Shown piece by piece: positions 30,710 through 55,239 of a DNA stretch of 64,000 bases. The notes under the pieces are model-generated. The model was not told the DNA's origin and did not search any database. It saw nothing but the letters and a program-made list of their open reading frames with translations. The translations under genes and the position numbers were made by a program. The stretch's first letter is position 1; the number at the start of each line of letters is the position of its first letter. Source of the stretch: Cryomorphaceae bacterium (GTDB lineage: Bacteria > Bacteroidota > Bacteroidia > Flavobacteriales_D > SKUL01); contig REDV01000092.1 in assembly GCA_007695365.1 (NCBI GenBank), positions 4,844 to 68,843 of the forward strand, read 5' to 3'.

Positions 30710-30987
30710 TTGGTTATGTGCAGGTTAGCCGCTTTTGGCTTGAGGTTCCAAGAGGCGCATGCGTTTCATCTCGTCAAACAAGGCAGTTTTACCCCCGCTT
30801 CACAAGGATGATGTTCGCACCTCTAAGACTCTTTAACCATATAAGCGTTGCCTCTGCAAGGATACTAAAATAATTTGTAGCGGTATGACGGCTTGTTAAC
30901 GTGAACGCTACATTTTGGAATTAAATTTTTGAGAGCAAGGTGCCGTTTGGTGGGTGAACCTTGGTCATTTTTTCCGAGCTTTGTGGG

Positions 30988-32097
30988 GTGTATCTCCAAA
31001 GCCTGCAACTTGTAAACTTTAAGAACTGTCCGTCTGGAACTTTCAGCTTTGAGCCGGGTGTGAACTGCTTTGTGGGCGAGAATGGTGCCGGAAAGACCAA
31101 CCTGCTGGATGCCATCTATTACCTGTCACACTGTAAGAGCTACTTCAATCCTGTTGATTCTCAAAACATTTACCACGATGCGCCTTTCTTTGTGGTGGAG
31201 GGTAGTTTTGTACTGAATAACGTAGAAGACACGGTGTATTGCGGTGTAAAGCGAGGGCAGAAAAAAGTTTTCAAGCGGGGAGGTAAGGAATATTCGCGAC
31301 TGAGTGAGCACATTGGCAGGTATCCTGTGGTTATCGTATCCCCTTATGACAAGGATCTGGTATATGAAGGAAGCGATGTGCGAAGAAAGTTTATGGACGG
31401 AATTCTGGCTCAGTTTAACAGCCTTTACCTCGATTCATTGATTCAGTACAACAAAGCCTTACAGCAGCGAAATGCCCTGCTTAAGTATTTCTGGGAGAAC
31501 CGTCGCTTTGACTTGGAAAGTCTGGAGGTTTGGGATCAACAGTTGATTGAAACCGGGACTGTTCTTTACGAAGCTCGTCGTGCTTTTATGGAAGCCTTTA
31601 CGCCTGTTTTCAACCAAATTCATGAAAGAATCAGTGGTGGAAAAGAAGATGTTACGCTGGAGTATGATTCACAACTTCATGATGATTCATTTGAAGACTT
31701 GCTCGAATTACACAGGGATCAGGACAAGCAGCGGCAGCATTCTACTGCCGGGTTGCACAAAGACGATTTGCGCCTGAATATTGACGGTCATCCGCTCAAG
31801 AAATTTGGTTCTCAAGGACAGCAGAAAACCTTTTTAATTGCGTTAAAGCTGGCCCAATTTGCGTTTATCGCTGAAAAGAAAGATTGTAAGCCCATTTTGT
31901 TGCTGGATGATGTGTTCGATAAGATTGACGATCACCGCGTGCGCCACCTGATGGAGCTTGTGTCTGAAAACAATTTCGGGCAGATTTTCGTGACAGATAC
32001 GGATTTGAAGAGGGTCCCGGGCATTTTTGAGGCCATTGGCGCACCTGGAAAAGTGTTTGAACTTCAAAAAGAATCGAAGCATGTCGAAGTTCAGTAG
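30988..32097 (+). CDS. recF: DNA replication and repair protein RecF
   Basis: A GTG start gives MYLQSLQLVNFKN. Walker A GENGAGKTN, signature SQGQQKT, and Walker B LLLDDVFDKID. Confidence 0.9.
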   Translation: MYLQSLQLVNFKNCPSGTFSFEPGVNCFVGENGAGKTNLLDAIYYLSHCKSYFNPVDSQNIYHDAPFFVVEGSFVLNNVEDTVYCGVKRGQKKVFKRGGKEYSRLSEHIGRYPVVIVSPYDKDLVYEGSDVRRKFMDGILAQFNSLYLDSLIQYNKALQQRNALLKYFWENRRFDLESLEVWDQQLIETGTVLYEARRAFMEAFTPVFNQIHERISGGKEDVTLEYDSQLHDDSFEDLLELHRDQDKQRQHSTAGLHKDDLRLNIDGHPLKKFGSQGQQKTFLIALKLAQFAFIAEKKDCKPILLLDDVFDKIDDHRVRHLMELVSENNFGQIFVTDTDLKRVPGIFEAIGAPGKVFELQKESKHVEVQ

Positions 32098-33923: not shown

Positions 33924-34451
33924 ATGCACCAATCAATTGCTCCTCACTGGGAGAAGCTTACCCTTCTTAAAAACGAATGGATTGCTCAATTGGAAACCCT
34001 GCCTCAGGAGACTTGCTCGGCCCGGCTGGCTCAGGGGTGGAATATTCTGCAGGTTGTTGAGCACGTTATCACTTCCGAAACAGGTACATTGGGCTACATG
34101 AAAAAGAAAACAGCCGCCCCGTGGAGTGAAATACCATTGGCAAACGAAAATCATGTATCGAAAGGCAGGCAACTGAATGAAGCACTTAAATCTGAAAAAC
34201 GCTGGAAGGCCCCGGATGTGCTTCCGGATCCTACCGGGTCACAATCATTTGATAATATGGCGAAGTATTGGGATGGATTGCGTGGAGAGTATCAAGGATT
34301 CCTAAGCGACCTCGATCCTGCCTATTTCGAAAGAACCATCTTCAGACACCCCTATTCAGGCCCACTCGATTTGTACCATACACTGGATTTTCTGTGTAAC
34401 CACATTCTTCACCATCAGTATCAGGTAGAGAGGATTAAGGTGATGCTTTGA
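33924..34451 (+). CDS. DinB family protein
   Basis: 175 aa four-helix type. Has the conserved His pattern (VEHVITSE..., LCNHILHHQYQ). Confidence 0.75.
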   Translation: MHQSIAPHWEKLTLLKNEWIAQLETLPQETCSARLAQGWNILQVVEHVITSETGTLGYMKKKTAAPWSEIPLANENHVSKGRQLNEALKSEKRWKAPDVLPDPTGSQSFDNMAKYWDGLRGEYQGFLSDLDPAYFERTIFRHPYSGPLDLYHTLDFLCNHILHHQYQVERIKVML

Positions 34452-34485
34452 GCGGGTGCGCCGAACCTCACCACACTTATGAACT

Positions 34486-34570
34486 ATTGTTGACAACATA
34501 TGTTCAAACAATGTGAAAAACATCCATACGAAAAGTTTGCCTGGCCGAGGTTTTATACTGTCCTTTGACA
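34486..34570 (+). promoter_or_regulatory. upstream module copy 1: imperfect dyad ATTGTTGA-N9-TTCAAACAAT, ATGTGAAAA, AAAAGTTTG (-33-like), CCTTTGACA (-7-like TTTG)
   Basis: Same ordered blocks as 35018..35113. The two TTTG boxes are spaced 20 to 21 nt from the expected TAnn position, as in Bacteroidota sigma-A promoters. Confidence 0.4.
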
Positions 34571-34573
34571 CGC

Positions 34574-34952
34574 AAGTCAACGGATTTGTTGTCGGTTTTT
34601 CAAACCAGTTGAGTGTTTTGACATCGTGCCTTCTCAAGGGAAGGAACACCACGGAGGCAACTCCTGAAGTGAAGATGCTGCCCGGTGTAAGTCGGGTGAG
34701 TTGCAAGTTCGGTTCGCCGAAAAAGCAAAGTAACATTTGCGATTGCAGCGAAAGGAGCAGGGTTCGCAAGAACCTGTTCGCATACATGTCTTCGGACATT
34801 GGCGAAAGGCTTCAAAACACAACGCCAGATACGTAGAACTTCGGTTGGACGTTGAAGACAGTAGAAAAGATGATTTGTTCACTTTGCAAACTACGGTTTG
34901 CATGAGTGATGCGGGAGTCCGTTTCTTACGATTCGGACTCCCGTTTTTTTTT
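34574..34952 (+). ncRNA. candidate structured ncRNA A (about 380 nt, unassigned family)
   Basis: No credible ORF. Tetraloop hairpins: 34653..34664 GGAG-GCAA-CUCC; 34758..34776 with a GCAA loop; 34786..34799 AUGUC-UUCG-GACAU; 34832..34851 with a UUCG loop; 34886..34901 GCAAAC-UACG-GUUUGC. Ends in the terminator at 34912..34952. Confidence 0.45.
34912..34952 (+). terminator. strong intrinsic terminator
   Basis: CGGGAGUCCG-12 nt loop-CGGACUCCCG followed by U9. Confidence 0.85.
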
Positions 34953-35017
34953 GTCCGTTTTCGTCCATTACAAGAGTATAGTTGCTTGTTTTTAGCAGGC
35001 GGGAACAGGACCATTGA

Positions 35018-35113
35018 GTTGTTGACAATTGTTCATAACTCATGTGAAAACGAAGTGCAAAAACTCCAAAAGAAAAGTTTGGTAACTGGGCAGTAATTTC
35101 CCCACCTTTGACA
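35018..35113 (+). promoter_or_regulatory. upstream module copy 2: dyad GAGTTGTTGAC-N4-GTTCATAACTC, ATGTGAAAA, AAAAGTTTG, CCTTTGACA
   Basis: Block-for-block similarity to 34486..34570, about 532 bp downstream of copy 1. Confidence 0.4.
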
Positions 35114-35116
35114 TGT

Positions 35117-35570
35117 CAAACGAGAGATAGAAGCCGGTCGAACGAGATCGGAAACTCTGAAAAGGCAGGTGCAAACGGAAAGTCCTCCTCGCGGTTGCGG
35201 TTTTCTGTGCAAGGTTGAGTTCGGCAACGACTCAATGTCCTGTGGGAATGAGTAGCGAAACACAAGACTCACTTACTTCGGTGGCTGAGTTGAAAGGGAG
35301 TTAAATCCCCGTTGCGTTGCGAAGTTTCGTTCGTGAAAGCGACGAAGCATGTTCCCGGCGAAGCACACCAAGTTGAATATCCTCAGGGATGCTCATTGTG
35401 TGGTGTGTGTACCACGATGCAAATCGTCGCCGGTTTCAGAGTAGAATGGAAAGAGGCTTCCGGGCCGAATTCCGGGCTTCGAACGGTAGTTTGAAATCAG
35501 GTTGCGCTACGGTGCAGCCACGATTAACGGGAGCTATTTCGCAAGAAGTGGCTCCCGTTACTGTTTTATG
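35117..35570 (+). ncRNA. candidate structured ncRNA B (about 450 nt, unassigned family)
   Basis: Hairpins: 35134..35151; 35215..35235 (8 bp with a GCAA loop); 35267..35290 (UUCG loop); 35504..35515 (UACG loop). A long terminal hairpin at 35526..35559, AACGGGAGC...GCAA...GCUCCCGUU, is followed by ACUGUUUUA. Confidence 0.4.
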
Positions 35571-35617
35571 GAGTTAGCGAATAGGAAGAAAATTCAATCT
35601 GGTGGATGGCTGTGGGG

Positions 35618-38600
35618 CTATCGCAACACTGTAATGCTGCCCCTGAACTCATAGGTTTCAAGCGTAGCTGTGGAACCCACTTGCAGGTGATACACGTACA
35701 CTTCGTCCTGAGCATAGTATTTCCCAGATGTATCGCTCCCGTTCCATTTCAGTTCAGGATCGCTCGATTCAAAAACCAATTGCCCCCAGCGGTTGAAAAT
35801 GCGCAACCTGAAGTTACCAGGGTCAATACCCAATCCTTCAATGGAAAACAGGTCGTTGATCCCGTCTTCATTGGGTGTAAATGCGTTGGGGATATAGACG
35901 CTAAAATCATCGCGAACCACATAGTTGATGCATCGCTGATCGCTGCATCCCTCTTCCGACCACACCGTCAGGCAAACAGGATACACTCCGGGTTGCTGAT
36001 CAAAGGTGAGTACAGGATTGTTGATGCCAAAAGTACCCCACTCGCCAAAGTCCCACTCAAGTGAGTCGGCATTTAGACTTTGATTAAAAAACTGCACCTG
36101 TTCGTTGTAAATGGTAGATTCTTGAGGAGATGCTCTGAAATCGGCAATTACAGGCGGAAGTACTTCAAGGTGATGATTCACAATGCTGTCGCAGCCATTG
36201 CTGGCAGGAAATATCTGAATGTAGGTGCCGGAGCTGGTGTAGTTGTTCAATCCAATGGTGTAAACGTCACCGTCGCAAATCTCGGCAAAAACATCCGTCA
36301 ATACATTGGGCGTGATAGTGAGCGTAAGTGTAGCACTCACCTCACAACCCCAAACGTTGAAACCTTCGTGCTGATACACCCCACTTTCCGTGTAGGCAGT
36401 TCCAAACCATGTATAGCTGCCGCACGCGCTTATCTCCGAAGTGATGTCTTCTGAGAAGTTAATGGTCAGGTCGAGAATAATGGTGCTGTCGCAGCCTGCT
36501 TCATTGCTCAATACAACCGAATGCACGCCACTTTGCACATAGGTTTCTCCGTTCAGCGGCCAGGTATAACCATCGCACTCTGAAATTTCCAGCACTGTTT
36601 CGCTGGCCTGTAAAACTTCCAAAGTGAGTGTTGCAGGCTCACTACAACCTTCGCCCGAAGGTGTGAACGTGTAAGTTGTTGTTTGCAGATTATTGATGGC
36701 CGGAGACCAGGAGCCAGCTACACCATTTATTGAAGTCACAGGCAGGGCAGGAATATCATCACCTGCACAAAAAGGCCCTTGCACATCGAAAAGAGGTATT
36801 ACGGTTTCTTCTATTTCTATGGTCAATGTTGTGGCAGTAGCACATTCACTCCCGGTAGGGGTAAAAGTGTAGGTGGTTGTTTCTGCATTGTTTAGGGCAG
36901 GAGACCAACTGCCGGAAAATCCGTTCAGGGATGTGGTTGGCAGAGCCGGTATATTCGCACCCTGACAGAAGGGACCCACATCAGCAAATTCAGGTTCTGT
37001 TGGTGCAGCAATCTCGATGGTAAGCGAAGTTTGAGATGCACATTGCCCCGCGCCGGGGGTAAAGGTGTAGCTGGTAGTTGCTGTGTTGTTCACTGCCGGC
37101 GACCAGGTTCCTGTAATTCCATTGTTGGAAGTGGTAGGCAAAGCAGGAATGTCAGCACCCTCGCACCAGGTGTCGGGTTCGTCAAAAAGTGGAGTGGTTT
37201 CGGGGCTAATTATTATATCAACCGTAGTTGACTCTGCGCATTGCCCCGGGTCGGGAGTGAAGGTGTAGGTAGTGGTTGCGGTATTGTTAACGGCAGGAGC
37301 CCATGAGCCGGTAATGCCATCGTTGCTAATAGCGGGCAGAGGGGGAATATCAGAACCCACACAATACGCCGGCGGTGGTGTAAAGGAAGGAGTAGTTTCG
37401 GGCTCAATTTCAATGACAAGCGTTGTATTCACAGCGCACTGATCCGGGTCAGGCGTAAAAGTATAGGTGGTGGTTGCCGTGTTGTTGATGACTGGTGCCC
37501 AGTTGCCGGTAATGCCATTGTTGGAGCTTGTGGGCAAGTCCGGAATATCCGAACCCGTGCAAAAAGGGCCTGCCTCATCGAATACGGGTTCTATTTCGGT
37601 GTCGATTACAACCTCCAAAGTAGTGGTGGTTGCACATTGACCCGCGTTGGGGGTGAAGGTATAGGTAGTGGTTGTTGTGTTGTTCATCGCGGGCGCCCAG
37701 GTTCCGGTAACACCGTTATTAGAGGTGGTTGGCAGCGCAGGGATGTCCGAGCCAAGACAATAAGGCCCTGCAGCACTGAATGCAGGCTCCTGTGCCTCTA
37801 CAATGGTTACAGTGGTCTGGGCAGTCACTTCTTCGCAACTACCAAAAGCCGGTATGGTATAGGTGATGGTGTATGTGCCTCCTGAGCTTTGGTCGGGAGT
37901 AATTTGACCGTTGCCGGGGTTGATGGCAAGGCCGCCCGGTTCGGCTGTGAAGGTGCCGCCTGTAAAGTTTTCAGTGCCTTCCAGAACTACGTCCTGAGGA
38001 GGTGCTTCTGACGCACAGAGTTCGGTGTCGGGATAACTAATAGTGGCGGTAGGGCAGGGATCTACGGTTGCCCCCACAAAATAGGGGCAGTGCAGGCTGT
38101 GCGTGCAGCCAAATGGAACGTTAAAGGTGTAGCAGAAAACATATGAGTTTCCCGGTACTACCGGCGAAAAGGTCAGGCTCGTCAGTGAACCGGTTTGAAT
38201 CGGTGCCCCGCACGTGATGTCGTATAGCGCCCAGGAAAAGTTCGTAACATTTCCCGCGCCGCAATCTGAGGTGATGATGACGTTGAAGCTCACGCTGGTT
38301 ACTGTGGCTGTAAAAGAGTTGCAGAAAGTGTTGAGTGAGCCTGAGGCCAATGGAGGAAAAAACTCAGGAGTTTCACAGTCTTCTACCACTTGTGGAATGG
38401 TGGGCTCAGTTGCATAGCCCAATGCATCGCCGCAAGGATCTTCACAAGTTGGGCAGAGCTGATTGTCGCCACCGCCACCTCCACCCGACAGACAGTTAAC
38501 GCAAGCAGGGTTAGTGGCTGCAATGCCAGCGCAAATAGCATCCCACGTTGTGACGCAACAGAATATGTCAACAGCGCAAACAGCAGTTTGACAAAGTATG

Positions 38601-38752
38601 TCGGACGGAAAGCCTGCCCCGGTCTGAGCTTGGTCGCAAAAAGGTTGCGCCTGCACATGATTCACGCTAACCGTTGCAATGCTTAATAGCATAGCCGCCA
38701 GCACGTTGCGGAGAGAAGCAAAGCTAAGTATTGAAAATTCAAACAGTTGCAC
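35618..38752 (-). CDS. large surface protein: Cys-rich N-module, six 66-aa repeats, three CDS-type repeats, PKD-like domain, T9SS type B CTD
   Basis: C-terminal FSVYIPNAFTPNEDGINDLFSI...LRIFNRWGQLVF...GSITVLR. Shares a 30-nt near-identical stretch of CTD DNA with 27194..30709. Confidence 0.88.
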   Translation of the reverse strand: MQLFEFSILSFASLRNVLAAMLLSIATVSVNHVQAQPFCDQAQTGAGFPSDILCQTAVCAVDIFCCVTTWDAICAGIAATNPACVNCLSGGGGGGDNQLCPTCEDPCGDALGYATEPTIPQVVEDCETPEFFPPLASGSLNTFCNSFTATVTSVSFNVIITSDCGAGNVTNFSWALYDITCGAPIQTGSLTSLTFSPVVPGNSYVFCYTFNVPFGCTHSLHCPYFVGATVDPCPTATISYPDTELCASEAPPQDVVLEGTENFTGGTFTAEPGGLAINPGNGQITPDQSSGGTYTITYTIPAFGSCEEVTAQTTVTIVEAQEPAFSAAGPYCLGSDIPALPTTSNNGVTGTWAPAMNNTTTTTYTFTPNAGQCATTTTLEVVIDTEIEPVFDEAGPFCTGSDIPDLPTSSNNGITGNWAPVINNTATTTYTFTPDPDQCAVNTTLVIEIEPETTPSFTPPPAYCVGSDIPPLPAISNDGITGSWAPAVNNTATTTYTFTPDPGQCAESTTVDIIISPETTPLFDEPDTWCEGADIPALPTTSNNGITGTWSPAVNNTATTSYTFTPGAGQCASQTSLTIEIAAPTEPEFADVGPFCQGANIPALPTTSLNGFSGSWSPALNNAETTTYTFTPTGSECATATTLTIEIEETVIPLFDVQGPFCAGDDIPALPVTSINGVAGSWSPAINNLQTTTYTFTPSGEGCSEPATLTLEVLQASETVLEISECDGYTWPLNGETYVQSGVHSVVLSNEAGCDSTIILDLTINFSEDITSEISACGSYTWFGTAYTESGVYQHEGFNVWGCEVSATLTLTITPNVLTDVFAEICDGDVYTIGLNNYTSSGTYIQIFPASNGCDSIVNHHLEVLPPVIADFRASPQESTIYNEQVQFFNQSLNADSLEWDFGEWGTFGINNPVLTFDQQPGVYPVCLTVWSEEGCSDQRCINYVVRDDFSVYIPNAFTPNEDGINDLFSIEGLGIDPGNFRLRIFNRWGQLVFESSDPELKWNGSDTSGKYYAQDEVYVYHLQVGSTATLETYEFRGSITVLR
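36599..37789 (-). repeat. six tandem 66 to 67 aa repeats, consensus P-x-F-x4-P-x-C-x-G-x-D-I-P-A-L-P-T-T-S-N-N-G-I-T-G-x-W-x-P-A-x-N-N-T-x-T-T-T-Y-T-F-T-P-x3-Q-C-A
   Basis: Counted in the translation, aa 322..718. The period is about 198 bp. Confidence 0.88.
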
Positions 38753-39089
38753 GTATTGGTTTTGCGGTGGTTTCTGTCAGGTTCAGGCTGAAAGAGATGC
38801 GGGCATCTTTCTCTGCCTTGCAAGATGCAACTTTTTTCTTATGTACCCAATGACGGCGAAAAAAACTCTAAGGTTGCATGGGGTATCAATCATTACATCG
38901 TGTCGTCCTCTATGTTATTGGAGTGTAATCAGGGGGTGGTTAAAAGGTGACGCATCGTGCTGAATACATGATAAACACAAAATCCTAAGCCTTTACTTTC
39001 AACCTGTCTTTGTGGAAAATTATGGAGCGGCGGTTCAGTAACCCATCCTAAATGAAATACCTTTCACCCAAATCAAGAACGTTCTCTTC

Positions 39090-40460
39090 ATGGTAAGGAA
39101 GTCATCCGCGCGGAAGAAAAAAGCTGGCAACGAAGAGCCCGGGAAAATCTTTGTGATAGATACCTCGGTTATTCTGTACGACAGCAATGCAATCAATAAT
39201 TTTGATGAACACTCCATCGTAATACCTATTCAGGTGTTGGAGGAGGTAGATAACTTCAAAAAAGGCAACGAAACCAAAAACTTTGAGGCACGCGAGTTCA
39301 TCCGTTTTGTAGATCAGGTTGCTCAAAATCAACTTATCAACGATTGGGTGCCACTAAACGGTGCCGGAAAAGGCAAGTTTAAAGTTGCACTCACCCACGA
39401 TGTAAAAGGTGTTGATGCTGTGAGAGTCTTGGGCGACAAGAAGTACGACAATCAAATTTTAAATTGCGCGCTTAGTACCCAGGAGGCCAACCCCGATAAA
39501 AAGGTGATTTTGGTATCCAAGGATATTTGCCTTCGGCTTAAGGCCAAGGCCCTGAACATTCAGGCTGAAGATTACGAAACGGGCAAGGTGAAGGATGTAT
39601 CCAAGCTTTATAAAGGCCACCAAAGCATTGATCGCATCTCTGAAACACTCCTCGATAGCCTCTTTAACAAAGGTTTTGGCGACCCTGAACTTTTGCCCAA
39701 AAAGGTTAAGCCGGTTGCCAATGAATACTTTGTGCTGCGAAATGCCAAAAAATCTGTTCTGGCGCGATACGATGCCCTGGAGCAAATGCTGGTGCGTGTA
39801 AAACCTGAGCCGGCTTTTGGTATCAAGGCCCTCAACGCTGAGCAAAGTTTTGCGCTGGATGCCCTTGCAAACCCCTCTATTAAGCTGATAACCATCCAAG
39901 GTAAAGCAGGAACCGGAAAAACCCTCCTCGCACTTGCAAGCGCCATTGAGCAACGCAGAGACTACAGGCAGATTTTTGTGAGCCGTCCCGTAATACCTCT
40001 TAGCAACAAGGATATCGGATACCTTCCCGGAGATATCAAAAGCAAACTCGACCCCTACATGCAGTCTATCTGGGATAACCTGAACTACATCAAAAGTCAG
40101 TTCAGAAATACCGATAAGAACGTGCAGCGAATCAAAGAAATGGTGGACAACGAAAAGATAGCCATTTCGCCTTTGGCGTACATTCGCGGACGAAGTCTAG
40201 TAAAGATTTTCTTCATCGTTGATGAAGCCCAAAACCTCACTCCTCACGAAGTGAAGACCATCATCAGCAGGGCCGGTGACGATACCAAAATTGTGTTTGC
40301 CGGAGATATTCACCAAATCGATACACCCTATCTTGATTCTGAGTCAAACGGCCTGTCGTATCTGATTGATAAGGTAAAAGGCAGTCCGCTGTTTGCCCAT
40401 ATTGCCCTTGAGAAAGGTGAGCGGAGCGATTTGGCCAATCTCGCCAATGAGCACCTCTAG
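39090..40460 (+). CDS. PhoH-like ATPase with N-terminal PIN domain (YlaK type)
   Basis: PIN-like FVIDTSVILYD...QVLEEVD. Walker A GKAGTGKT, Walker B FIVDEAQNL. Confidence 0.9.
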   Translation: MVRKSSARKKKAGNEEPGKIFVIDTSVILYDSNAINNFDEHSIVIPIQVLEEVDNFKKGNETKNFEAREFIRFVDQVAQNQLINDWVPLNGAGKGKFKVALTHDVKGVDAVRVLGDKKYDNQILNCALSTQEANPDKKVILVSKDICLRLKAKALNIQAEDYETGKVKDVSKLYKGHQSIDRISETLLDSLFNKGFGDPELLPKKVKPVANEYFVLRNAKKSVLARYDALEQMLVRVKPEPAFGIKALNAEQSFALDALANPSIKLITIQGKAGTGKTLLALASAIEQRRDYRQIFVSRPVIPLSNKDIGYLPGDIKSKLDPYMQSIWDNLNYIKSQFRNTDKNVQRIKEMVDNEKIAISPLAYIRGRSLVKIFFIVDEAQNLTPHEVKTIISRAGDDTKIVFAGDIHQIDTPYLDSESNGLSYLIDKVKGSPLFAHIALEKGERSDLANLANEHL

Positions 40461-40502
40461 AAAATGCTATTTTTGCGAACCTTCAACCCAAAAAACCAAA
40501 AA

Positions 40503-41210
40503 ATGAAATCTCTGTTCTTACCCGTAATGCTGGCCGTTTTTCTGATGGCAGCATGCACAGAAACTCCTGAAACCAAAACTGAAGAAAACACTGAAAAACC
40601 TGCAACCATGACTGAAAAAGACGCAAAGCCTGAAGGCGAGCAATCCATATCTGTTCCTGCTCAAGAGGGTATGTATGCACAAATCACCACCAACCGAGGG
40701 GTGATTCTTATTCGCCTTGAGTACCAACGTACCCCCATGACCGTAGCCAACTTTGTAGCTTTGGCCGAGGGAAAAATGCCCAACAAAGCGAAGCCCGAAG
40801 GAGAGCCTTTTTACGACGGGCTTCTTTTCCATCGAGTTATCAGCCGGGCCAATGGTCAGGATCAGGATTTTATGATTCAGGGTGGTGACCCCGAAGGACG
40901 CGGAACCGGAGGCCCCGGATACCGTTTTCCCGATGAATTTCATCCGGAGTTGCGCCACGATAAGCCGGGTATTTTATCCATGGCCAATTCAGGACCGGCT
41001 ACCAATGGGAGCCAGTTCTTCATTACCCACCTGCCTACACCATGGCTCGATAACCGTCACTCCGTGTTTGGGAGTGTAATTGGCGGAATGGATATAGTGA
41101 TGAACACTTTGCAGGGCGATGTGATGCAAAAAGTTGAAATCATCCGAATCGGTGATGAGGCAAAAGCTTTTGATGCCCTGGCTGTGTTCAATGAAAAGAT
41201 GGGCGCATAG
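40503..41210 (+). CDS. cyclophilin-type peptidyl-prolyl cis-trans isomerase, lipoprotein
   Basis: Start at [18 protein letters not shown]. Cyclophilin core [28 protein letters not shown]. Confidence 0.9.
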
Positions 41211-41259
41211 GCCAAATAACATAAACCCGCTTGAAGCGTTCTGTTTAAAACCTGGTGTC

Positions 41260-41793
41260 ATGAAAATCCTGCTATCCACTTTTTTTACAGGCTTTTTTGC
41301 TGTGACTGCCTGGGCCCAAACCGGCAATATGTTTCCTGAATTATCGGGAGAAACCCTCTCGGAGGAGGTACTTACCATTCCGGATGATACCCGCGGCAAG
41401 TACACACTTGTTGGATTGGCTTCGAGCGAAAAAGCCGAGGAATTCCTAAGAGGATGGTACGAACCGGTGTACAACAAGTTCATCGCAAAAACCGGAATGT
41501 TTGATGACATGTTCGACGTGAATGTGTTTTTTGTGCCCATGTTTTCCGGAAGCAAGAAGATAGGTAAGGGAAAGGTGATGAAGAGCATGAAAGAAAGCAA
41601 GAATACAGAGCTTTTTGATCACGTGCTCTTTTACGAAGGACAACTCAAAACCTACCAGGAAGCCTTGAGAATGAGCAAAACGGATTTACCTTATATTTTT
41701 CTGCTCGATCCCGATGGGAACATTGCTTATTCAACGTCGGGTTATTACAATGAGCGTAAAATGGATGCCATTGACGATATCCTCATTCAGTAA
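41260..41793 (+). CDS. hypothetical secreted protein
   Basis: Start at MKILLSTFFTGFFAVTAWAQ (signal peptide). 177 aa. Confidence 0.5.
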   Translation: MKILLSTFFTGFFAVTAWAQTGNMFPELSGETLSEEVLTIPDDTRGKYTLVGLASSEKAEEFLRGWYEPVYNKFIAKTGMFDDMFDVNVFFVPMFSGSKKIGKGKVMKSMKESKNTELFDHVLFYEGQLKTYQEALRMSKTDLPYIFLLDPDGNIAYSTSGYYNERKMDAIDDILIQ

Positions 41794-41795
41794 CC

Positions 41796-42503
41796 GTGTG
41801 TACCCTCACTTTTGCTCCCTTAGGTACTAAACAGGTTATCACTATCAATCGTGATGAAGCCCCTGAGCGCCGCGCTGACGATCCCGTTATACGTGAGCGT
41901 TCCGGAAAGCAGTTGTGGTTGGCTCCCGAACCCGTTTCCGGCTCAAGTAACGTGGTATTCGATATCATCAACCATCGTCTGGTCGTCCTGCTGAACGGTG
42001 CTTTTGAATCACACGAACATAAACCTCCGTATAGGTTGAGCAGGGGATTGGTGATTCTCGACAGCTTCGATTACGATTCTCTGGGTGCCATGAAACGCTT
42101 ATACGACTTTACAGGTATTGAGCCTTTTACCTTACTTGCTTTTCAAAAAGGAGCAACGGAGGAAATGAGATGGGACGGAGAGAAGGTTCATTACACCGAC
42201 CCTGCAGCACACCAATTTACCATTTGGTCTTCGGCCAAATTGTACCCGGCCGAAGTCATTCAAAGCCGTGAGGAGGCTTTTGCAGATTGGCTGAAGAAAA
42301 ATCAACGCATTTACGCACAGCAACTGTTTGATATGCACCAGCGCGAAGGCGACGATAGCCGCGGGCCCGGTTTCAGAATGAACTACGAGGATTTGGTAAA
42401 AACAGTGAGTATTACTCAGTTTACTTTAAGTGGAAACAGGGTGGCTTTGCGATACCTTGATTTGATGCGGAGGCCGGCTCAACTCATGGAGCGCGTTTTT
42501 TAA
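41796..42503 (+). CDS. NRDE family protein (TANGO2-like)
   Basis: A GTG start gives MCTLTF... with the invariant Cys2 and the INRDE motif at residues 17 to 21. Confidence 0.75.
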   Translation: MCTLTFAPLGTKQVITINRDEAPERRADDPVIRERSGKQLWLAPEPVSGSSNVVFDIINHRLVVLLNGAFESHEHKPPYRLSRGLVILDSFDYDSLGAMKRLYDFTGIEPFTLLAFQKGATEEMRWDGEKVHYTDPAAHQFTIWSSAKLYPAEVIQSREEAFADWLKKNQRIYAQQLFDMHQREGDDSRGPGFRMNYEDLVKTVSITQFTLSGNRVALRYLDLMRRPAQLMERVF

Positions 42504-42572
42504 TCTGATCCATTGAAAAGAGGTTCGGTCGGTTTTTCAACTAACTTTGCGTGAAACCAAAAGTGCAGATCT

Positions 42573-43250
42573 ATGCGTGATGCTTACCTCATTTCGAACT
42601 TTGGCGGACTTTTGATGGCCATGCTGTTCATGTTTCCGGCAAATTCGCAGGCACAGTTATTCGATGACATGAAACCCCGGGAAACCATTCTCGACTCGAG
42701 ATGGATGTATGGGTTCAACATAGCGGCGGTTGCTGCCAGCTACAGTTTCGGTACGAGCACCACTGATGCGGATATCCCTATAGGTGAGCGCTTTGACGAA
42801 ACTACTATGCCTTTTGGTTACCGCGTGGAGGGCTATCTGTTGTACAACGCCAACTTTTTGTATGTGGGGCCAGTTGTGAGTTACGAACACCTATATGGTC
42901 GCAATCGCTCATTGATGGGTAATGATTTTTCCTATAGCATTGGAAGTGCTCGCTTTGGTATTCATGCCGAGTTTCCCTTGCTGACATCCTCGAGCGGTGC
43001 GATATACATGTCGGTAGAGGTGGGTGGATTGGCGTTGATTGATGACGGCACCCTGATGGGCACAGGCCAGGCACCCGTGTTGATGTACGGTGGTTACGGC
43101 ATCGGCTATCAAATCAACCTAGGTGAACACAGCAGCCTTAATATTGGTTTTACACTCGATTACACCAGGTTTAGAAATGATTGGAACGGCCTCCGACTCA
43201 CACATAGTCTGTTTCCCTTCGGACTTAAAACTGGTCTGAGATTTGGTTAA
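42573..43250 (+). CDS. hypothetical outer-membrane-like protein
   Basis: Signal peptide ending SQAQ, beta-strand-like alternation, and a C-terminal ...GLRFG. Confidence 0.5.
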   Translation: MRDAYLISNFGGLLMAMLFMFPANSQAQLFDDMKPRETILDSRWMYGFNIAAVAASYSFGTSTTDADIPIGERFDETTMPFGYRVEGYLLYNANFLYVGPVVSYEHLYGRNRSLMGNDFSYSIGSARFGIHAEFPLLTSSSGAIYMSVEVGGLALIDDGTLMGTGQAPVLMYGGYGIGYQINLGEHSSLNIGFTLDYTRFRNDWNGLRLTHSLFPFGLKTGLRFG

Positions 43251-43280
43251 AGCAGAATTTGAACAACGAAAACTTTAAAC

Positions 43281-43631
43281 ATGAAAGCAATTTTGTCTCT
43301 TTTCTTTTTGCTCGCTATGGGCGCTATGAATCTGGCTCAGGCGCAAGACACCCAAAAAGTGGATGCCGAACAGATTGTGGTGAGGTTCTATGAAACCGGT
43401 GCACTCGCTCCGTCAGAGGCTGTTATTTCCTATAGTGACGGCACCCATGAAGTGGTTGATATGAAAAGCCTCACCGGTCGCACCAAAAACTGGGAGGAAA
43501 ACGCAAAAATCATCAATGAGGTGCTAAACCGCTTGCGAAAGCAAGGTTACACGCTTATTAGTTCGGTAGGAGGTGGTCCTGATATGATGCTATCCACCTA
43601 TGTTTTCCTGAGAGATGATCTGGTGAAATAG
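43281..43631 (+). CDS. hypothetical secreted protein
   Basis: Signal peptide MKAILSLFFLLAMGAMNLAQA. 116 aa. Confidence 0.5.
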   Translation: MKAILSLFFLLAMGAMNLAQAQDTQKVDAEQIVVRFYETGALAPSEAVISYSDGTHEVVDMKSLTGRTKNWEENAKIINEVLNRLRKQGYTLISSVGGGPDMMLSTYVFLRDDLVK

Positions 43632-43633
43632 GA

Positions 43634-44455
43634 CTACACAGCCACCACACTTTGGAGCGTCATTCGCATGGCATCCATTCCGCGTTTTTCAAGAGAATCC
43701 TCCACGTAATTAAAAGTTGAAAGAATATCGGGTTGGCCGTTTACCACGGCTACATCGTGCTCAAAATGGGCTGATGGCATGCGATCTAACGTAACAATGG
43801 TCCAGCCGTCTTCCAATTGGAGAACATCTTTCGTGCCCAGGTTCACCATGGGTTCAATGGCAATCACAAGGCCTTCCTGAATTTTCTTACCCCGTCCTCT
43901 TTTTCCGTAGTTGGGAACCTGAGGGTCTTCGTGCATTGAGGTTCCAAGGCCGTGCCCAACCAGTTCTCTTACAACGCCATAACCTTCTCGTTCTGCATGC
44001 TCCTGGATGGCTGCTCCAATGTCTCCCAAGCGTCGTCCTACACGCGCCTCGTGGATGCCGAGATAAAGGCTCTCTTTGGTAATGCGTAACAGTTTTTTCA
44101 CCTCCGGGCTAATTTCTCCGATGGCAAAAGTGTAAGCGTGATCGCCGTAATAGTCGTTGAGAATCGCTCCGCAGTCAACCGAAACAATATCCCCCTCTTT
44201 AAAGGGTGTTTTGCAGGGAATTCCGTGCACCACCTGCTCGTTTACCGACATGCACAAGGTGTTGGGAAATCCGCCAAAGCCCAAAAAAGCTGGCACTGCC
44301 CCCTGATCGCGAATATACTCCTCTGCCATTTTATCCAGTTCAAGAGAGGTAACTCCGGGCCCGATGCGCTCTGCCACCAAACCCAATGTGCGTGAAACTA
44401 CCTGCGCGGCAGCCCGCATAAGTTCAATTTGTTCAGGGGTTTTGTAGTGAATCAT
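43634..44455 (-). CDS. map: type I methionyl aminopeptidase
   Basis: Metal ligands in DIVSVDCG, GDHAYTF, GHGLG, VIAIEP and FEHDV. Confidence 0.95.
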   Translation of the reverse strand: MIHYKTPEQIELMRAAAQVVSRTLGLVAERIGPGVTSLELDKMAEEYIRDQGAVPAFLGFGGFPNTLCMSVNEQVVHGIPCKTPFKEGDIVSVDCGAILNDYYGDHAYTFAIGEISPEVKKLLRITKESLYLGIHEARVGRRLGDIGAAIQEHAEREGYGVVRELVGHGLGTSMHEDPQVPNYGKRGRGKKIQEGLVIAIEPMVNLGTKDVLQLEDGWTIVTLDRMPSAHFEHDVAVVNGQPDILSTFNYVEDSLEKRGMDAMRMTLQSVVAV

Positions 44456-44934
44456 TTCTTTTTGAATAGCTTGTCAAAAAATGAGCGATTGGATTTTTTG
44501 TAGTTGTGGTGTGCGGCCTGGTTGCGCAACTGAAGGTCAGTACCGCCATCGCCCGGGTGAATCATTTGGTAGATTTCGCCCCAACCTATAAAGCCGCCTA
44601 CGTTTCTGTCGTCTATAAACAGATCGGCGTTTATTTTTCTGCTCACCCTAGCGTCTTCAAACACTTCTTCGGGGTAACTCTTGTTCACCGCGTAAAATTC
44701 CAGTCCGTTTTCGCGGCAGTACTCCACCGCATCGTCGAGGTATCTTCCGGCTCTGAAAGTCCACAAAATGAGTTTGTGCCCCTTGGATTGCAGCTTTTTA
44801 AGCGTATCGAAGGCAAACAGCATTTCAGGTCCGATATCGGGGTATTTGTGCTCTACTATGGTGCCGTCGAAATCAACTGCAATGGTGAGCGAATCTTCTC
44901 CGATAAGCATGTTTTCTGTTGTTGATGGGTACAA
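44452..44934 (-). CDS. HAD-superfamily-like small hydrolase (hypothetical)
   Basis: IAVDFDGTIV carries the DxDxT motif I. 160 aa. Overlaps the map start by 4 nt. Confidence 0.55.
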   Translation of the reverse strand: MYPSTTENMLIGEDSLTIAVDFDGTIVEHKYPDIGPEMLFAFDTLKKLQSKGHKLILWTFRAGRYLDDAVEYCRENGLEFYAVNKSYPEEVFEDARVSRKINADLFIDDRNVGGFIGWGEIYQMIHPGDGGTDLQLRNQAAHHNYKKSNRSFFDKLFKKK

Positions 44935-45103
44935 TTGAGCGCAAAAGTAAATAGTTTAGGGTCAAGTTGCGGTGAATAGTTGTAACAGCTAGAAAAACAT
45001 CGGTATGTGATCGTGTTTTGAGGTTTGATTTCAACCTGTTCTGGCTGCGGGTGTGCAACTTTACCGGAATTTGTGAGTCATCAGAACAACCAACCCACAT
45101 AAC

Positions 45104-47980
45104 ATGAAAACCAATCCAGTAATCCTCACTACCGCCCTGCTTTTCAGCTTAGGTACAGCAATGGCTCAATGTCCTGACACCCTTACCGTATGGCAAACCG
45201 GTTGCGGACAGGTAGAGGCGAGTATCAATCATTTTGGCTCCACCGGAAATCTCATTTGGACATGGGGCGACGGCGAAAGCAGTTCCGCTGTGAATCCTGC
45301 TACACACCAGTACGATGCACTCGGAACCTACGAAATCTGTGCCCAGGCATGGTCGTCTGGCTGCCCGCAAGGTGTGGAACTCTGTGTGCTTTTTGAACTG
45401 GAGCAATGCCCCGAAGATTGTGGGCTGAGTATTTCAACCGTTTCACAGGAGAATGGCCTGTTAACCCTCATGGCATCGGATTTTCCGCAGGATGCGATGG
45501 TTCATTGGGAGCAGAACGGTGATATTGTAAACATTGGTGATCAGACCACCTTTGAACTTGAGTTTGGGAACAATGAGATTTGCGCCTACTACGAAACTCC
45601 TGAATGTCCGCAAGGTGTATTTTGGTGCAACAACTTTTTCTTTCAAAACCCGGACTGTCCAACCGCCATAGAGGCACAACAAGTAGGCTGTGATGTGTTT
45701 AATTTATCGCTGGTTGGTGGTTTCAGCGGCGCAAGTGTGCTGTGGAGTGTCGGTTCTGATGTGATTGAGGGCGATACCGAGCTTAACGGTGTACAACTCT
45801 CACCTGGAAACAATCAAATCACAGCTTTGTACAACCACCCGGATTATCCCTTATGTGATGACACCCAGCTGAGCTTGAATGTGAGTGCTTTGCTCTGTGA
45901 CAGTATTTGCGAATTGGAATTGGTTCACACATGGGTGAGCCTGAATCCAATGGTATTCAGTGCTTTGAATTACGACCCTGGTGCTTTGGTTACATGGACC
46001 GTTAACGGTAATCCGGCGGGTACAGGACACAACTTTACGCTCTCCAGCCAGGTTCCAGGTGGCACTTATACAGTTTGTGCAAGCTATGACTCTGAGTACT
46101 GCGATGAGGTCATAGAAGAATGCGCCACGATTTCGCTTCCCAATTGTCCTACCGGCATTACAGCCGAGCAATTATCCTGTGGAGTGTACGAGCTTACGCT
46201 GGAGAATGCGCAGGAAGGTTCTACCATTCAATGGAGCTACCCCGGCAATAGCTTTGAATCTAACGCCACCCCTCAAATTGTGATTCTTGAGGAATGGTTT
46301 AACGTGATTACCGCTGTGTACAACAATCCTGACAACCCTGAATGTGATGGCTCTATCTACAGCCAGTTAGTAATTCACACCAGTTGCGACACGGTGTGTA
46401 GCTTGGATGTGGACATGATTCAAGGCGTTGAAGGTGATATGTTTATTGCCTCTGCCGGACAGGAGGATGCTGTGATTGAATGGTCTATTGGTGGTGAGCC
46501 GGTAGCTTTTGGCGACACGCTCAATCTCGATTCCTTATCGCCCGGTCAATACCTGATTTGTGCGGCGTACGAAACACCGTTCTGTCCGGAGGGTGTGCTC
46601 TGGTGCGATACGTATGTGGTGAGCGATGACGATTGTCCTTTTGAACTCATTGTGGAAGAGGGTGATGAATGTGGTTGTTACGATTTTACGATTGGGCCTT
46701 CCGGGGCTGGAGGGGCCTACATGTGGAACATGGGTGATACATCATTTGTATCATTAACCCCAGGTGTATCTTACTGCTTTGTGCCCGGTTTTCAAACTGT
46801 TTATGTGCAGATCATGGGCAGCAATTTTCCTGACTGTGAAACGAGTCCGCTCGTGCATCAATGGCAGGTTCCCGATTGCGATGAGCCCACATGCCCTGCC
46901 GAACTGTTTGTGTTGGAGTTAGAGGATTGTGGCTGTTATATGTTTACTGTGAACCCGCCAAATATTGGAGGAAGCTATATGTGGAATCTTGGTGATACGA
47001 GTTTTGTCAGCAGTCTTGCCAGTCATATTCAATGCTACGAACCAGGTTTTCAAACTGTGTACGTTCAGATTTTGGAAAGTGATATAGCGGATTGCGAGAT
47101 GGCTCCGCTTGTTCATCAGTGGGAACAAATAGATTGTGATGGATGTTCGCTGGGCCTGACTTTTGAACACCTCGGAGGAGGTTTGTTCGAGTTTCAAGCC
47201 TCTGTATATGGATCGAACGCGCCGCTGTGGTGGGACTTTGGAGATGGGTTTACAACCGAAACGGGCAATTGGTCAACCCAACACATTTATCTTCCCGGAA
47301 ACTACACAGTATGTGTAATAACTACGGATACAGTATGTCCCGAGATCCTGGAGGCCTGTGTTGAGTTCACTGTTGAAGATTCTGTTGAATGCTTCTGGTG
47401 GGGTGGAATATGGGGTACTACTGCAGCCTCGCCTCCTGTGACCTTTGACTTTCTTTTCTCTAACGAAGCTGGCGATGAAGTCGGTTTTTTTACCTCCTGG
47501 CTTGAAGGAGACTCCATTTGGTTTGGCGGAGAATGGTGCCTGCTGCCGGGTTGTTATCATTTGATGGTAAGCAGCGATGTTCCTCTCACCCCTGAAATGA
47601 TTGAACCCGATTTGTGGATGATATTGCCAGACGTGATTCCCATGAATATTAACTGGCAGGATAACGACAATCCTTTTGAGTGGGAAGCATGGCTGGAGAT
47701 CCTCGTCGAATGCGAAGATCCTTCGGTGGGTGTGCAGGAAAACCCCCTTGATGTGATCCGCGTCTTTCCCGTGCCAACCCGCGATCTGCTGCAAATTGAA
47801 TTATCCGGAGTGGACGGGGTAGACTGCATTTTGTTCAACGCGGTAGGTCAACCTGTTTTAACCCGTGTACTCCGCACCAATGATCGAATTTCATTGGCTC
47901 ATCTCCCTGCTGGTCTGTATATCATGCAGTTCAGACACAATGACCAGGTAAAGACATTCAGTATTCCCGTACTGAATTGA
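45104..47980 (+). CDS. Cys-rich secreted protein with T9SS type A CTD
   Basis: Signal peptide. Many modules bracketed by CP-x-GV-x-C and CPDT/CPTG. C-terminal VFPVPTRDLLQIEL...GLYIMQFRHNDQVKTFSIPVLN. Confidence 0.8.
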   Translation: MKTNPVILTTALLFSLGTAMAQCPDTLTVWQTGCGQVEASINHFGSTGNLIWTWGDGESSSAVNPATHQYDALGTYEICAQAWSSGCPQGVELCVLFELEQCPEDCGLSISTVSQENGLLTLMASDFPQDAMVHWEQNGDIVNIGDQTTFELEFGNNEICAYYETPECPQGVFWCNNFFFQNPDCPTAIEAQQVGCDVFNLSLVGGFSGASVLWSVGSDVIEGDTELNGVQLSPGNNQITALYNHPDYPLCDDTQLSLNVSALLCDSICELELVHTWVSLNPMVFSALNYDPGALVTWTVNGNPAGTGHNFTLSSQVPGGTYTVCASYDSEYCDEVIEECATISLPNCPTGITAEQLSCGVYELTLENAQEGSTIQWSYPGNSFESNATPQIVILEEWFNVITAVYNNPDNPECDGSIYSQLVIHTSCDTVCSLDVDMIQGVEGDMFIASAGQEDAVIEWSIGGEPVAFGDTLNLDSLSPGQYLICAAYETPFCPEGVLWCDTYVVSDDDCPFELIVEEGDECGCYDFTIGPSGAGGAYMWNMGDTSFVSLTPGVSYCFVPGFQTVYVQIMGSNFPDCETSPLVHQWQVPDCDEPTCPAELFVLELEDCGCYMFTVNPPNIGGSYMWNLGDTSFVSSLASHIQCYEPGFQTVYVQILESDIADCEMAPLVHQWEQIDCDGCSLGLTFEHLGGGLFEFQASVYGSNAPLWWDFGDGFTTETGNWSTQHIYLPGNYTVCVITTDTVCPEILEACVEFTVEDSVECFWWGGIWGTTAASPPVTFDFLFSNEAGDEVGFFTSWLEGDSIWFGGEWCLLPGCYHLMVSSDVPLTPEMIEPDLWMILPDVIPMNINWQDNDNPFEWEAWLEILVECEDPSVGVQENPLDVIRVFPVPTRDLLQIELSGVDGVDCILFNAVGQPVLTRVLRTNDRISLAHLPAGLYIMQFRHNDQVKTFSIPVLN
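46627..47143 (+). repeat. internal tandem duplication, 2 x about 86 aa
   Basis: DCPFELIVEEGDECGCYDFTIGPSGAGGAYMWNMGDTSFVS...GFQTVYVQIMGSNFPDCETSPLVHQWQ compared with TCPAELFVLELEDCGCYMFTVNPPNIGGSYMWNLGDTSFVS...GFQTVYVQILESDIADCEMAPLVHQWE. Confidence 0.85.
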
Positions 47981-47997
47981 TTGATGTTTCATGAGTC

Positions 47998-48033
47998 AAA
48001 AAACTCCGCAGCTTCCCTCTGCGGAGTTTTTTT
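47998..48033 (+). terminator. intrinsic terminator (A/T-flanked, potentially bidirectional)
   Basis: AAAAAACUCCGCAG-cuucccu-CUGCGGAGUUUUUUU. Confidence 0.85.
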
Positions 48034-48071
48034 GTACAAAAGCCGTATTTTCAGACCCAATTAACCAAACA

Positions 48072-49964: not shown

Positions 49965-49978
49965 CGAAGGGTGCCGGA

Positions 49979-51106: not shown

Positions 51107-51198
51107 TGCGGCGTTCAGACAGCTTTGCTCTGCTTTGCGAGTGCCCAAATTTTTGTTTTTTTACGCGGTGTTTGGCGAAACCGCGACACCTCTGAAAC

Positions 51199-52644: not shown

Positions 52645-52648
52645 CCTA

Positions 52649-54459: not shown

Positions 54460-55239
54460 CTAGGACGCAAGCAGAGCCAACCCGAATCCTGCGAGAATCA
54501 CCACCATTTTATACAGGTTGAAGCGGTGGTTTTCGCCGGTTTCAAAGAGGATGGTTGTAGATAAATGAAGGATGATACCTCCGGCGAGCGCAAGAATTCT
54601 GGAAAAAACAACCATATCCTGGCCGTTGTTGCTGATTAGCGGGCTTACCAAAATACCAATTGGCGCGGAAGCCGCAAAAATGAAAAGAAACAATATGGTT
54701 TTAGCCCTGGACATTTTCAACCCCAACATCATCCCTACCAATGCTATGGTAATAGGAATATTGTGAATCACAATACCCCAAAGGTAGCCCTGATGACTGT
54801 GGTGGTGATGGTGATGACCGTGGTTGTGCATGTGATCGTGCGCATGATGGAGTTGCTCATCAAAGCCTAGCGGCAGACTTTCCGTAAAGGCGTGAATACA
54901 CAGGCTCAATAGCATGGTCCAAGTGATGGCCTTTCCGTGCTCATGTTCGTGATGCTGGGCCGGGTGGTGCACATGTCCGTGCTCTATTCCTCCACTGAAA
55001 TAGTCAAGAATAATCTGAAGTAAAAAACCGGCAATTACGAACACTCCAACCTGCGCACCGCCCAATTCGTAAGCTTCCGGAAGAATATGCATCACGGTAA
55101 TTCCCAAGAGCAGTGCCCCGCTAAACGCAAGCAGCATTTTCAGGTAGGGCTTCATCAATTTAGGGAAGGCAATTACCAATAGCCCGACAGTCATCGCCGA
55201 GAAAAACAGAATGAGAATACGTTCGAGGCTTTCGGTCAT
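54460..55239 (-). CDS. ZIP family metal transporter with two His-rich loops
   Basis: Polytopic. HGHVHHPAQHHEHEHG and HHAHDHMHNHGHHHHHHSH. The ZIP signature HNIP is present. Confidence 0.85.
   Translation of the reverse strand: MTESLERILILFFSAMTVGLLVIAFPKLMKPYLKMLLAFSGALLLGITVMHILPEAYELGGAQVGVFVIAGFLLQIILDYFSGGIEHGHVHHPAQHHEHEHGKAITWTMLLSLCIHAFTESLPLGFDEQLHHAHDHMHNHGHHHHHHSHQGYLWGIVIHNIPITIALVGMMLGLKMSRAKTILFLFIFAASAPIGILVSPLISNNGQDMVVFSRILALAGGIILHLSTTILFETGENHRFNLYKMVVILAGFGLALLAS

Follow-up and report, generated by a model that had tools for sequence, protein, structure and literature searches.

A conserved four-box array upstream of tandem structured RNA genes in a Cryomorphaceae bacterium and its putative role as a shared operator

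The window analysed here is a 64-kb stretch of DNA (64,000 nucleotides) from the metagenome-assembled genome of an uncultured Cryomorphaceae bacterium, in which a non-coding stretch of 1,166 nt (34452–35617) holds two genes for structured RNAs, RNA1 and RNA2, each preceded by a copy of the same upstream module. The module consists of a 44-bp array of four 9-mers with the consensus TTWTNMACA, located at approximately -95 to -52 relative to the predicted transcription start, coupled to a core promoter of the Bacteroidota type. Its anatomy, conservation, rigid spacing, palindromy and promoter homology are established by comparison of related sequences, and from these we infer where transcription starts, that a protein binds, which way it regulates and what the factor might be. 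With a probability of roughly 0.65, the RNA genes are independent units with primary-sigma promoters that share an upstream operator for one protein, and the RNAs are co-regulated. In such an arrangement, each RNA gene would form its own transcription unit behind a Bacteroidota primary-sigma (sigma-A/ABfr type) promoter. One sequence-specific protein would nucleate as a dimer on a 20-bp palindrome centred at about -86, and would then spread cooperatively across the two proximal boxes (r3 and r4) to the end of the array at about -52. Once bound, the protein would modulate the activity of RNA polymerase on the core promoter, with activation the likeliest outcome, and the presence of the same array at every RNA gene of the cluster would lead to their co-regulation. 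Co-regulation of both RNAs by one factor can be regarded as a well-supported reading of the sequences.

Anatomy and conservation of the upstream module

Eight modules from four genomes were compared, namely those of the window, of L001/L029, of L032 and of L033. Each is located directly 5’ of a structured non-coding RNA (ncRNA) that possesses a terminator and has no match in Rfam. No insertion or deletion (indel) is present in any of the eight between alignment columns 10 and 83 (~74 columns). From the 5’ end, the array consists of box r1 in forward orientation (consensus TTATGAACA), 2 bp (AT), r2 in reverse orientation (TGTTGATAA), 4 bp (C and three further bases), r3 in reverse orientation (TGTGnAAAC), 2 bp, and r4 in reverse orientation (nGTGnAAAA), with the 2-bp spacing of r1–r2 and of r3–r4 found in 8/8 modules. 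The array is followed on the 3’ side of r4 by an unconserved linker of ~10 nt, an A-tract fused to TTTG, an unconserved spacer of 20–21 nt and an 8-mer that ends in TTTG. The two modules of the window are composed as follows.

Module 1
34477–34496, no strand: dyad, with r1 TTATGAACT at 34477–34485 (forward) and r2 TGTTGACAA at 34488–34496 (reverse complement TTGTCAACA); about -95 to -76
34501–34509, minus strand: r3 TGTTCAAAC (reverse complement GTTTGAACA); about -71 to -63
34512–34520, minus strand: r4 TGTGAAAAA (reverse complement TTTTTCACA, a perfect TTWTNCACA); about -60 to -52
34531–34539, plus strand: A-tract and -33 element AAAAGTTTG, with TTTG at 34536–34539 (-36 to -33)
34560–34567, plus strand: -7 box GTCCTTTG, TTTG kept and TA missing

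Module 2
35019–35038, no strand: dyad, with r1 TTGTTGACA at 35019–35027 and r2 TGTTCATAA at 35030–35038 (reverse complement TTATGAACA); about -96 to -77
35043–35051, minus strand: r3 TGTGAAAAC (reverse complement GTTTTCACA)
35054–35062, minus strand: r4 AGTGCAAAA (reverse complement TTTTGCACT), 2 bp from r3
35073–35081, plus strand: A-tract and -33 element AAAAGTTTG, with TTTG at 35078–35081
35103–35110, plus strand: -7 box CACCTTTG, TTTG kept and TA missing; L032 and L033 have TATATTTG at the orthologous position

The box consensus was derived from 28 boxes placed in one orientation, taken from the seven modules then available. The position counts are T21, T27, A14/T11, T28, any base, A15/C10, A28, C28 and A23, giving TTWTNMACA. 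Across all eight modules, 22 array columns are invariant, including the G/C positions (TGT, AC), and TGT..A.A is invariant in r3 of every module. Outside the 9-mers, T at column 20 and C at column 30 are invariant and G occupies column 9 in six of the eight. Boxes r1 and r2 together form a 20-bp palindrome that is self-complementary at 14–20 of 20 positions in each of the seven dyads scored (shuffle p 0.0001–0.016), and that is perfect over 20 bp in module X0 of L032 (TTATTCACAATTGTGAATAA). In the window, both dyads are self-complementary at 14/20 positions (p = 0.015 for module 1 and 0.0075 for module 2). The two arms of the palindrome conserve the same bases, and the variable positions 5 and 6 do not covary between arms, which is the behaviour expected of a protein site rather than of an RNA hairpin.

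Conservation within the module is uneven. Among paralogous modules, identity is 78% in the dyad and 58–63% in r3 and r4, but only at the random level of 28–29% in linker and spacer. The dyad is 90% identical to that of L001 and 79% to that of L032, compared with only 56% for RNA2 between the window and either L032 or L033. Because there are no indels over ~74 columns even though the linkers have reached random-level identity, the array is best read as a factor-binding operator coupled to the promoter. Only selection on the array accounts for the retention of dyad and array as the RNA bodies, linker and spacer diverged. When searched with a hidden Markov model (HMM) of the array, neither the 64-kb window nor any other fetched locus yielded an additional copy, and as far as can be seen the array is specific to these RNA genes. 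A 13-bp palindrome, TTGTTGTCAACAA, containing TTGTTGACAA on the minus strand, is located within a methyltransferase gene (window 55471–55483); it scores at chance level against both the array and the dyad HMMs (E above 2) and is probably coincidental.

The module had been noticed in a first-pass annotation as two copies of four ordered sequence blocks, and all of these could be located in the window at the positions given: TTGTTGACAA at 34487–34496 and 35019–35028, GTTCAAAC at 34502–34509 with GTTCATAAC at 35031–35039, ATGTGAAAA at 34511–34519 and 35042–35050, AAAAGTTTG at 34531–34539 and 35073–35081, and CCTTTGACA at 34562–34570 and 35105–35113. An nhmmer search with the 102-nt module 1 recovers module 2 (E = 1e-4; 7.5e-5 in the reverse direction) and nothing else in the window, where the pair TTTG...nnnnTTTGAC is also confined to these two sites. 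The distance of 532 bp between the copies had to be revised. The offsets of the blocks (532, 529–530, 531, 542 and 543) would need an indel of ~10 nt, whereas at 542–543 nt the copies align without gaps, 75% identical across 57 nt and matching in the -7 block as well; this is the homologous register. The offset of 532 arose because the upstream part is built from repeated units, TTGTTGACAA being unit 2 in module 1 but unit 1 in module 2. As a result, the inverted repeat proposed for copy 2 is a true palindrome (35019–35038), but that for copy 1 was misplaced by one unit. The pair GTTGAC...GTTCAAAC (34489–34509) comprises r2 and r3 in the same orientation and is no dyad; the real dyad of copy 1, TTATGAACTATTGTTGACAA at 34477–34496, begins 9 nt ahead of the annotated start. 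The dyad, placed earlier about 75 to 90 nt upstream, is centred at about -86 in both copies (span -95 to -76). In the register used earlier its position would differ between the copies, with a span of about -83 to -63 for copy 1 and of -94 to -76 for copy 2. The description of the dyad as resembling the operator of a dimeric regulator is borne out by its palindromy and by its being the best-conserved part of the module over four genomes, but the dyad makes up only half of a four-box array. Its recurrence in orthologous regions had been named beforehand as one of the points on which the proposal could fail, and it was found to be conserved there.

The relatives were recovered by synteny with the genes flanking the non-coding stretch. 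Synteny with the DinB gene (81% amino acid identity) led to L001, a metagenome-assembled genome from soda-lake sediment, of which the entire intergenic region is 91% identical to that of the window; in each module the differences fall mainly within the linker and within the spacer that separates -33 from -7. Further orthologues came through the downstream CHU_C gene, the relatives of which led to L029–L031, close to L001 (P0043, 82% identity), to L032 (P0061, 57%) and to L033 (P0071, 56%). L032 has a non-coding region of 1.6 kb with three RNA genes in tandem and a module before each; two are homologous to RNA1 (6.5e-9) and RNA2 (2e-21), and the third, RNA0, is new. L033 has RNA2 together with its module.

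Core promoters, predicted starts and the RNA genes

In flavobacteria the element TAnnTTTG is located at -12 to -5 (PMC9723704), and TTTG around -33 is the consensus of the Bacteroidota primary sigma factor (PMC7366714). Within the eight modules, the -33 TTTG is present in seven (CTTG in X0) and the distance of 20–21 nt to the -7 8-mer is kept in all. The aligned -7 box has the canonical sequence TATATTTG in X2 of L032 and Y2 of L033, the modules of RNA2 in these genomes, and ACATGTCAAAC comes directly after it there, just as it does in the window. The CCTTTG of the window was therefore assigned as the -7 element. The -7 box of X0 reads TAATTTCG, and both X0 and X1 read TTTCG. The interpretation of the two TTTG elements as a Bacteroidota -33/-7 promoter, proposed in the first-pass annotation, is supported. 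As that annotation remarked, the -7 boxes of the window lack the TA and have GTCC and CACC instead; L001 has lost the TA as well. No sigma-70-type promoter is present at the module sites. The intergenic sequence of the window contains 16 occurrences of TAnnTTTG against 7.1 expected, typically 15–90 nt 5’ of start codons, and from this excess it follows that the organism uses TAnnTTTG promoters. For the open reading frames (ORFs) 1939–3864 and 55236–55994, the TTG start of the longest ORF is the TTG within a TATATTTG -7 box, and the true start codons are probably further downstream.

With the G of TTTG taken as -5, transcription is predicted to start at G34572 for RNA1 and at G35115 for RNA2. 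In both cases the predicted +1 is the first conserved nucleotide of the RNA, and in RNA1 it also opens the covarying closing helix. The combination of imperfect -7 boxes with a better-conserved array would give the picture usual for factor-dependent (activator) promoters. Around the start of RNA2, a perfect 14-bp palindrome, TTTGACATGTCAAA, is identical in the window, L001, L032 and L033 though both flanks changed, and could be a second operator or reflect mere constraints of promoter and RNA. RNA1 has a looser counterpart, TTGACacgcaaGTCAA, at 34565–34580. The features of the non-coding stretch and of its L032 counterpart are as follows.

33924–34451, plus strand: DinB_2 gene, flanking the non-coding stretch
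34572–34952, plus strand: RNA1, structured ncRNA with predicted +1 at G34572; intrinsic terminator 34912–34943 and a T9 run
35107–35120, no strand: palindrome TTTGACATGTCAAA, extending over the -7 TTTG and the predicted start as far as nucleotide 6 of RNA2
35115–35570, plus strand: RNA2, structured ncRNA with predicted +1 at G35115; hairpin 35525–35560 followed by CTGTTTTATG
34912–34952 and 35525–35568 (window), 7880–7925 and 7275–7322 (L032): shared terminator sequence
35618–38752, minus strand: gene for a CHU_C/type IX secretion system (T9SS) surface protein of 1,044 aa, its 3’ end bordering the non-coding stretch
L032 8405–8722, minus strand: RNA0, fold z-score -3.2, among the fetched sequences only in L032
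L032 8828–9094, minus strand: 89-aa gene, the end of which abuts the first module of the cluster of three RNA genes

RNA1 and RNA2 fold more stably than shuffled controls (minimum free energy z-scores of -4.6 and -5.5, respectively). Compensatory changes were found at 23 pairs of RNA1, including the closing helix that begins at nucleotide 1, and at 29 pairs of RNA2 (four sequences compared). The closing helix of RNA1 is formed by nucleotides 1–6 and includes an A-U to G-C compensatory change. Because these compensatory pairs are present despite the RNA2 identity of 56%, RNA1 and RNA2 are genuine structured RNA genes on the plus strand. Neither has a match at the gathering threshold of Rfam, against which the whole window was scanned, and at the locus only chance-level matches appear at E up to 10; the L032 RNAs likewise give chance-level matches only (E up to 1). 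The RNAs of the cluster are 320–460 nt long and rich in GNRA and UUCG tetraloops. No repeated loop motif, as in a Csr/Rsm-like sponge RNA, was found in them.

RNA1 and RNA2 share the 5’ end GUCAA(A)CG and the terminator ACGGGAGY...RCUCCCGUU, and their bodies do not align. As both ends are common and the middles differ, the two are probably ancient tandem duplicates with conserved ends. The RNA1 terminator ends 66 nt before the start of module 2, which therefore lies outside RNA1. Within this interval (34953–35018), a segment of ~35 nt just 5’ of module 2 (TTTTAGCAGGCGGGAAyAGGryCATTGAG) shows strong conservation in the window and L001; in L032 it is not conserved.

Other searches for copies of the RNAs returned no further homologue. 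The RNAs are missing at the more distant DinB loci (L002–L005 and L025–L028), and scans of viral contigs with an RNA 18-mer and 20-mer gave chance matches only. The 15 loci returned when metagenomes were scanned with TTTGACATGTCAAACGAG are all chance matches, and a metagenome scan using a pseudo-protein translation of the RNAs gave no match. Translations of spurious ORFs from the RNA region had no match in a protein database, and BLAST against phage and plasmid collections gave none either.

Candidate factors and competing explanations

Several points weigh against a shared activator operator. The sample comprises four genomes that form two pairs of close relatives, and the scan of this genome covered ~64 kb, so that the restriction of the array to RNA genes is weak evidence. 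The -7 boxes of X2 and Y2 match the consensus and may need no activator. No regulator gene was found nearby among the genes of the window, in which the only signalling gene found encodes an orphan PAS histidine kinase (15461–17332). Located at -95 to -52, an operator could have a negative effect as well, or the array could serve a purpose unrelated to these promoters. In L032, the product of the 89-aa gene adjoining the first module could be a local DNA-binding protein; it has a sub-threshold winged-helix match only (HTH_45, E = 0.048), and the window has no homologue. A literature search with the half-site words returned primer noise only. Of the CRP, FNR, Rex, Fur, Zur, parS, IHF and PhoB/ArcA-type sites, none appears to fit both the half-site and the spacing. 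As to transcription guided by RNA through dCas12f and sigma-E (PMC13472631), no Cas12f-like or ECF (extracytoplasmic function) sigma family was detected among the window ORFs scanned against Pfam.

On box sequence and 2-bp spacing, the best-fitting named candidate for the factor is DnaA, though its assignment is tentative. The boxes would then be DnaA boxes on which DnaA oligomerises, coupling transcription of the ncRNAs to the replication-initiation or nucleotide-state cycle; this is possible, the odds of a dedicated regulator with comparable specificity being about the same or somewhat higher. The module consensus TTWTNMACA differs from the DnaA-box consensus TTWTNCACA (PMC4674748) at position 6 only, with the invariant, W and N positions shared and seven of the eight informative positions matching. 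The mean mismatch of the 28 boxes to the DnaA consensus is 1.21, and perfect DnaA boxes are found twice in X0 of L032 (TTATTCACA), in r3 of L033 (TTATCCACA) and in r4 of the window (TTTTTCACA). The sequence TTATCAACA is a predicted DnaA box of the origin of the Cyanothece linear chromosome, in a region footprinted by DnaA domain IV (PMC4674748). The constant 2-bp spacing of r1–r2 and r3–r4 is in line with E. coli, where DnaA binds box pairs 2–3 bp apart and is a transcription factor with a compact regulon (PMC11317965), and origins of Bacteroidota have been located with E. coli-type boxes (PMC4755523). Against DnaA, A replaces the consensus C at position 6 of 15/28 boxes, especially in the dyad, the most conserved part, and the window contains no perfect TTATNCACA. 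The bases conserved beyond the 9-mers themselves (at columns 20 and 30 and, in 6/8, at column 9) suggest instead a symmetric dimer site of 22 bp. The r2–r3 gap is 4 bp, and in E. coli the addition of one bp to a 3-bp gap strongly lowered binding (PMC11317965). DnaA regulons are also small, and the tentative standing of DnaA reflects this low prior weighed against a good motif match.

Explanations that dispense with a dedicated factor account for less of the pattern. The phased A-tracts could constitute an UP element, or curved DNA, touched by the alpha subunits of RNA polymerase, since an A-run ends each unit, A-tracts are located at about -58 to -52 and -42 to -37, immediately 5’ of the -33 TTTG, and the genes encode stable structured RNAs. 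In E. coli, UP subsites lie just upstream of the promoter, where the A-tracts of the module stand. However, the array has invariant G and C positions (TGT, AC) and its unit is a specific 9-mer, beyond mere A/T-richness; the distal half is palindromic (perfectly so over 20 bp in L032) and reaches -95, past any UP element, and the unit period of 11–13 bp gives no helical phasing. An UP element alone is therefore improbable. Still less credence attaches to the similarity of the modules being a mere relic of the tandem duplication of a promoter, RNA and terminator, without shared regulatory meaning. The common 5’ GUCAA(A)CG and terminator do mark RNA1 and RNA2 as probable old duplicates, but the RNA bodies no longer align, the linker and spacer have decayed to 28–29% identity with the dyad still at 78% and the array free of indels, and this pattern recurs both with another RNA that is unrelated to these two (X0) and between genomes in which RNA2 is only 56% identical. 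This conservation pattern largely refutes a simple relic.

It is likewise very unlikely that the upstream blocks are transcribed and act as a 5’ leader hairpin of the RNA, with a start further upstream. Although AAAGTTTG, which could then serve as the -7 box, is one mismatch off TAnnTTTG and the palindrome could form a hairpin, no module has a TTG at the right distance 5’ of AAAGTTTG, and the 20 nt on its 3’ side are the least conserved part of the module (46–52% among orthologues, 28% among paralogues). The variable positions of the palindrome arms are not compensatory, the strong terminator of RNA1 stands 66 nt ahead of module 2, and X2 and Y2 have a canonical -7 box downstream. A similarly slight chance is given to the non-coding region being, or containing, a chromosomal origin or DnaA-titration site in which the boxes serve replication. 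DnaA-like box clusters within a non-coding region of 1.2–1.6 kb would be consistent with this, as would the adjacent recF-like gene (30961–32097), the presence of DciA nearby in L029, and a divergence of gene orientation around 31–39 kb (mostly minus at 1900–30700, mostly plus at 39000–53600); the origins of Bacteroidota are, moreover, often distant from dnaA (PMC4755523). Yet across the locus the cumulative GC skew shows a monotonic rise and the plus-strand skew at third codon positions (GC3) is positive on both sides (+0.097 and +0.054), no AT-rich unwinding region is present (GC 41–51%), two covarying structured RNAs and their terminators take up the region, and each array is locked to a core promoter. 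An origin at the locus was rejected on the lack of a skew switch and of an AT-rich segment, and on the two RNA genes inside.

Relation to known systems and significance

The putative operator–promoter unit has partial counterparts in known systems. With sigma-ABfr/sigma-A promoters of Bacteroidota the module shares TTTG at -36 to -33, a spacer of 20–21 nt and a TTTG-ending 8-mer at -12 to -5; it differs in the replaced TA of the window and L001 (GTCC, CACC), in the TTTCG of X0 and X1 and in the conserved operator upstream. The array resembles the ‘double DnaA box’ of E. coli and the DnaA-box clusters of B. subtilis in the invariant, W and N positions of its 9-mer, the 2-bp spacing and the presence of several boxes per site, some of them perfect. 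Unlike such clusters, it has mostly A at position 6, a convergent palindromic pair with conserved flanks, one 4-bp gap, and ncRNAs as targets. The A-tracts at -58 to -52 and -42 to -37 recall the UP elements of stable-RNA promoters, from which the array is set apart by its invariant G/C positions, its distal palindrome and its reach to -95.

Families of small RNAs (sRNAs) that share the site of one regulator are known, including OmrA/OmrB (OmpR), RsmX/Y/Z (GacA, with a palindromic upstream activating sequence near -70), Qrr1–5 (LuxO) and PrrF1/PrrF2 (Fur). As in these multi-copy families, the ncRNA genes described here, probably duplicates, stand in tandem or in several copies, and every one of them has a promoter, a terminator and the same putative operator upstream, for which co-regulation would be the expected consequence. 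Like OmrA and OmrB, RNA1 and RNA2 share their 5’ and 3’ ends and differ in the middle. The present RNAs, at 320–460 nt, are by contrast larger, highly structured and rich in GNRA and UUCG loops, belong to another phylum, and are preceded by a four-box array at a fixed distance. The RNAs appear to be undescribed so far, the arrangement for their co-regulation being itself of a known type.

To our knowledge, very few regulator–operator pairs of Bacteroidota have been described outside polysaccharide utilisation, and almost nothing about the control of their ncRNAs. With 22 invariant array positions and rigid spacing, the module provides a compact conserved handle with which the regulator could be sought, through DNA pull-down or a direct assay of DnaA, and further members of the regulon could be found in complete genomes. 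It also supplies precise predicted 5’ ends for the RNAs and could help to find the conditions under which these novel RNAs of 320–460 nt are made. Should the array prove to be a DnaA site, which is conceivable but doubtful, the cluster of two to three ncRNAs of soda-lake and related Cryomorphaceae would stand under the direct control of the replication initiator. We know of no DnaA–ncRNA link of this kind in Bacteroidota, nor for large structured RNAs in any phylum. The ATP/ADP state of DnaA, and with it replication and growth rate, would then be tied to a dedicated set of ncRNAs.

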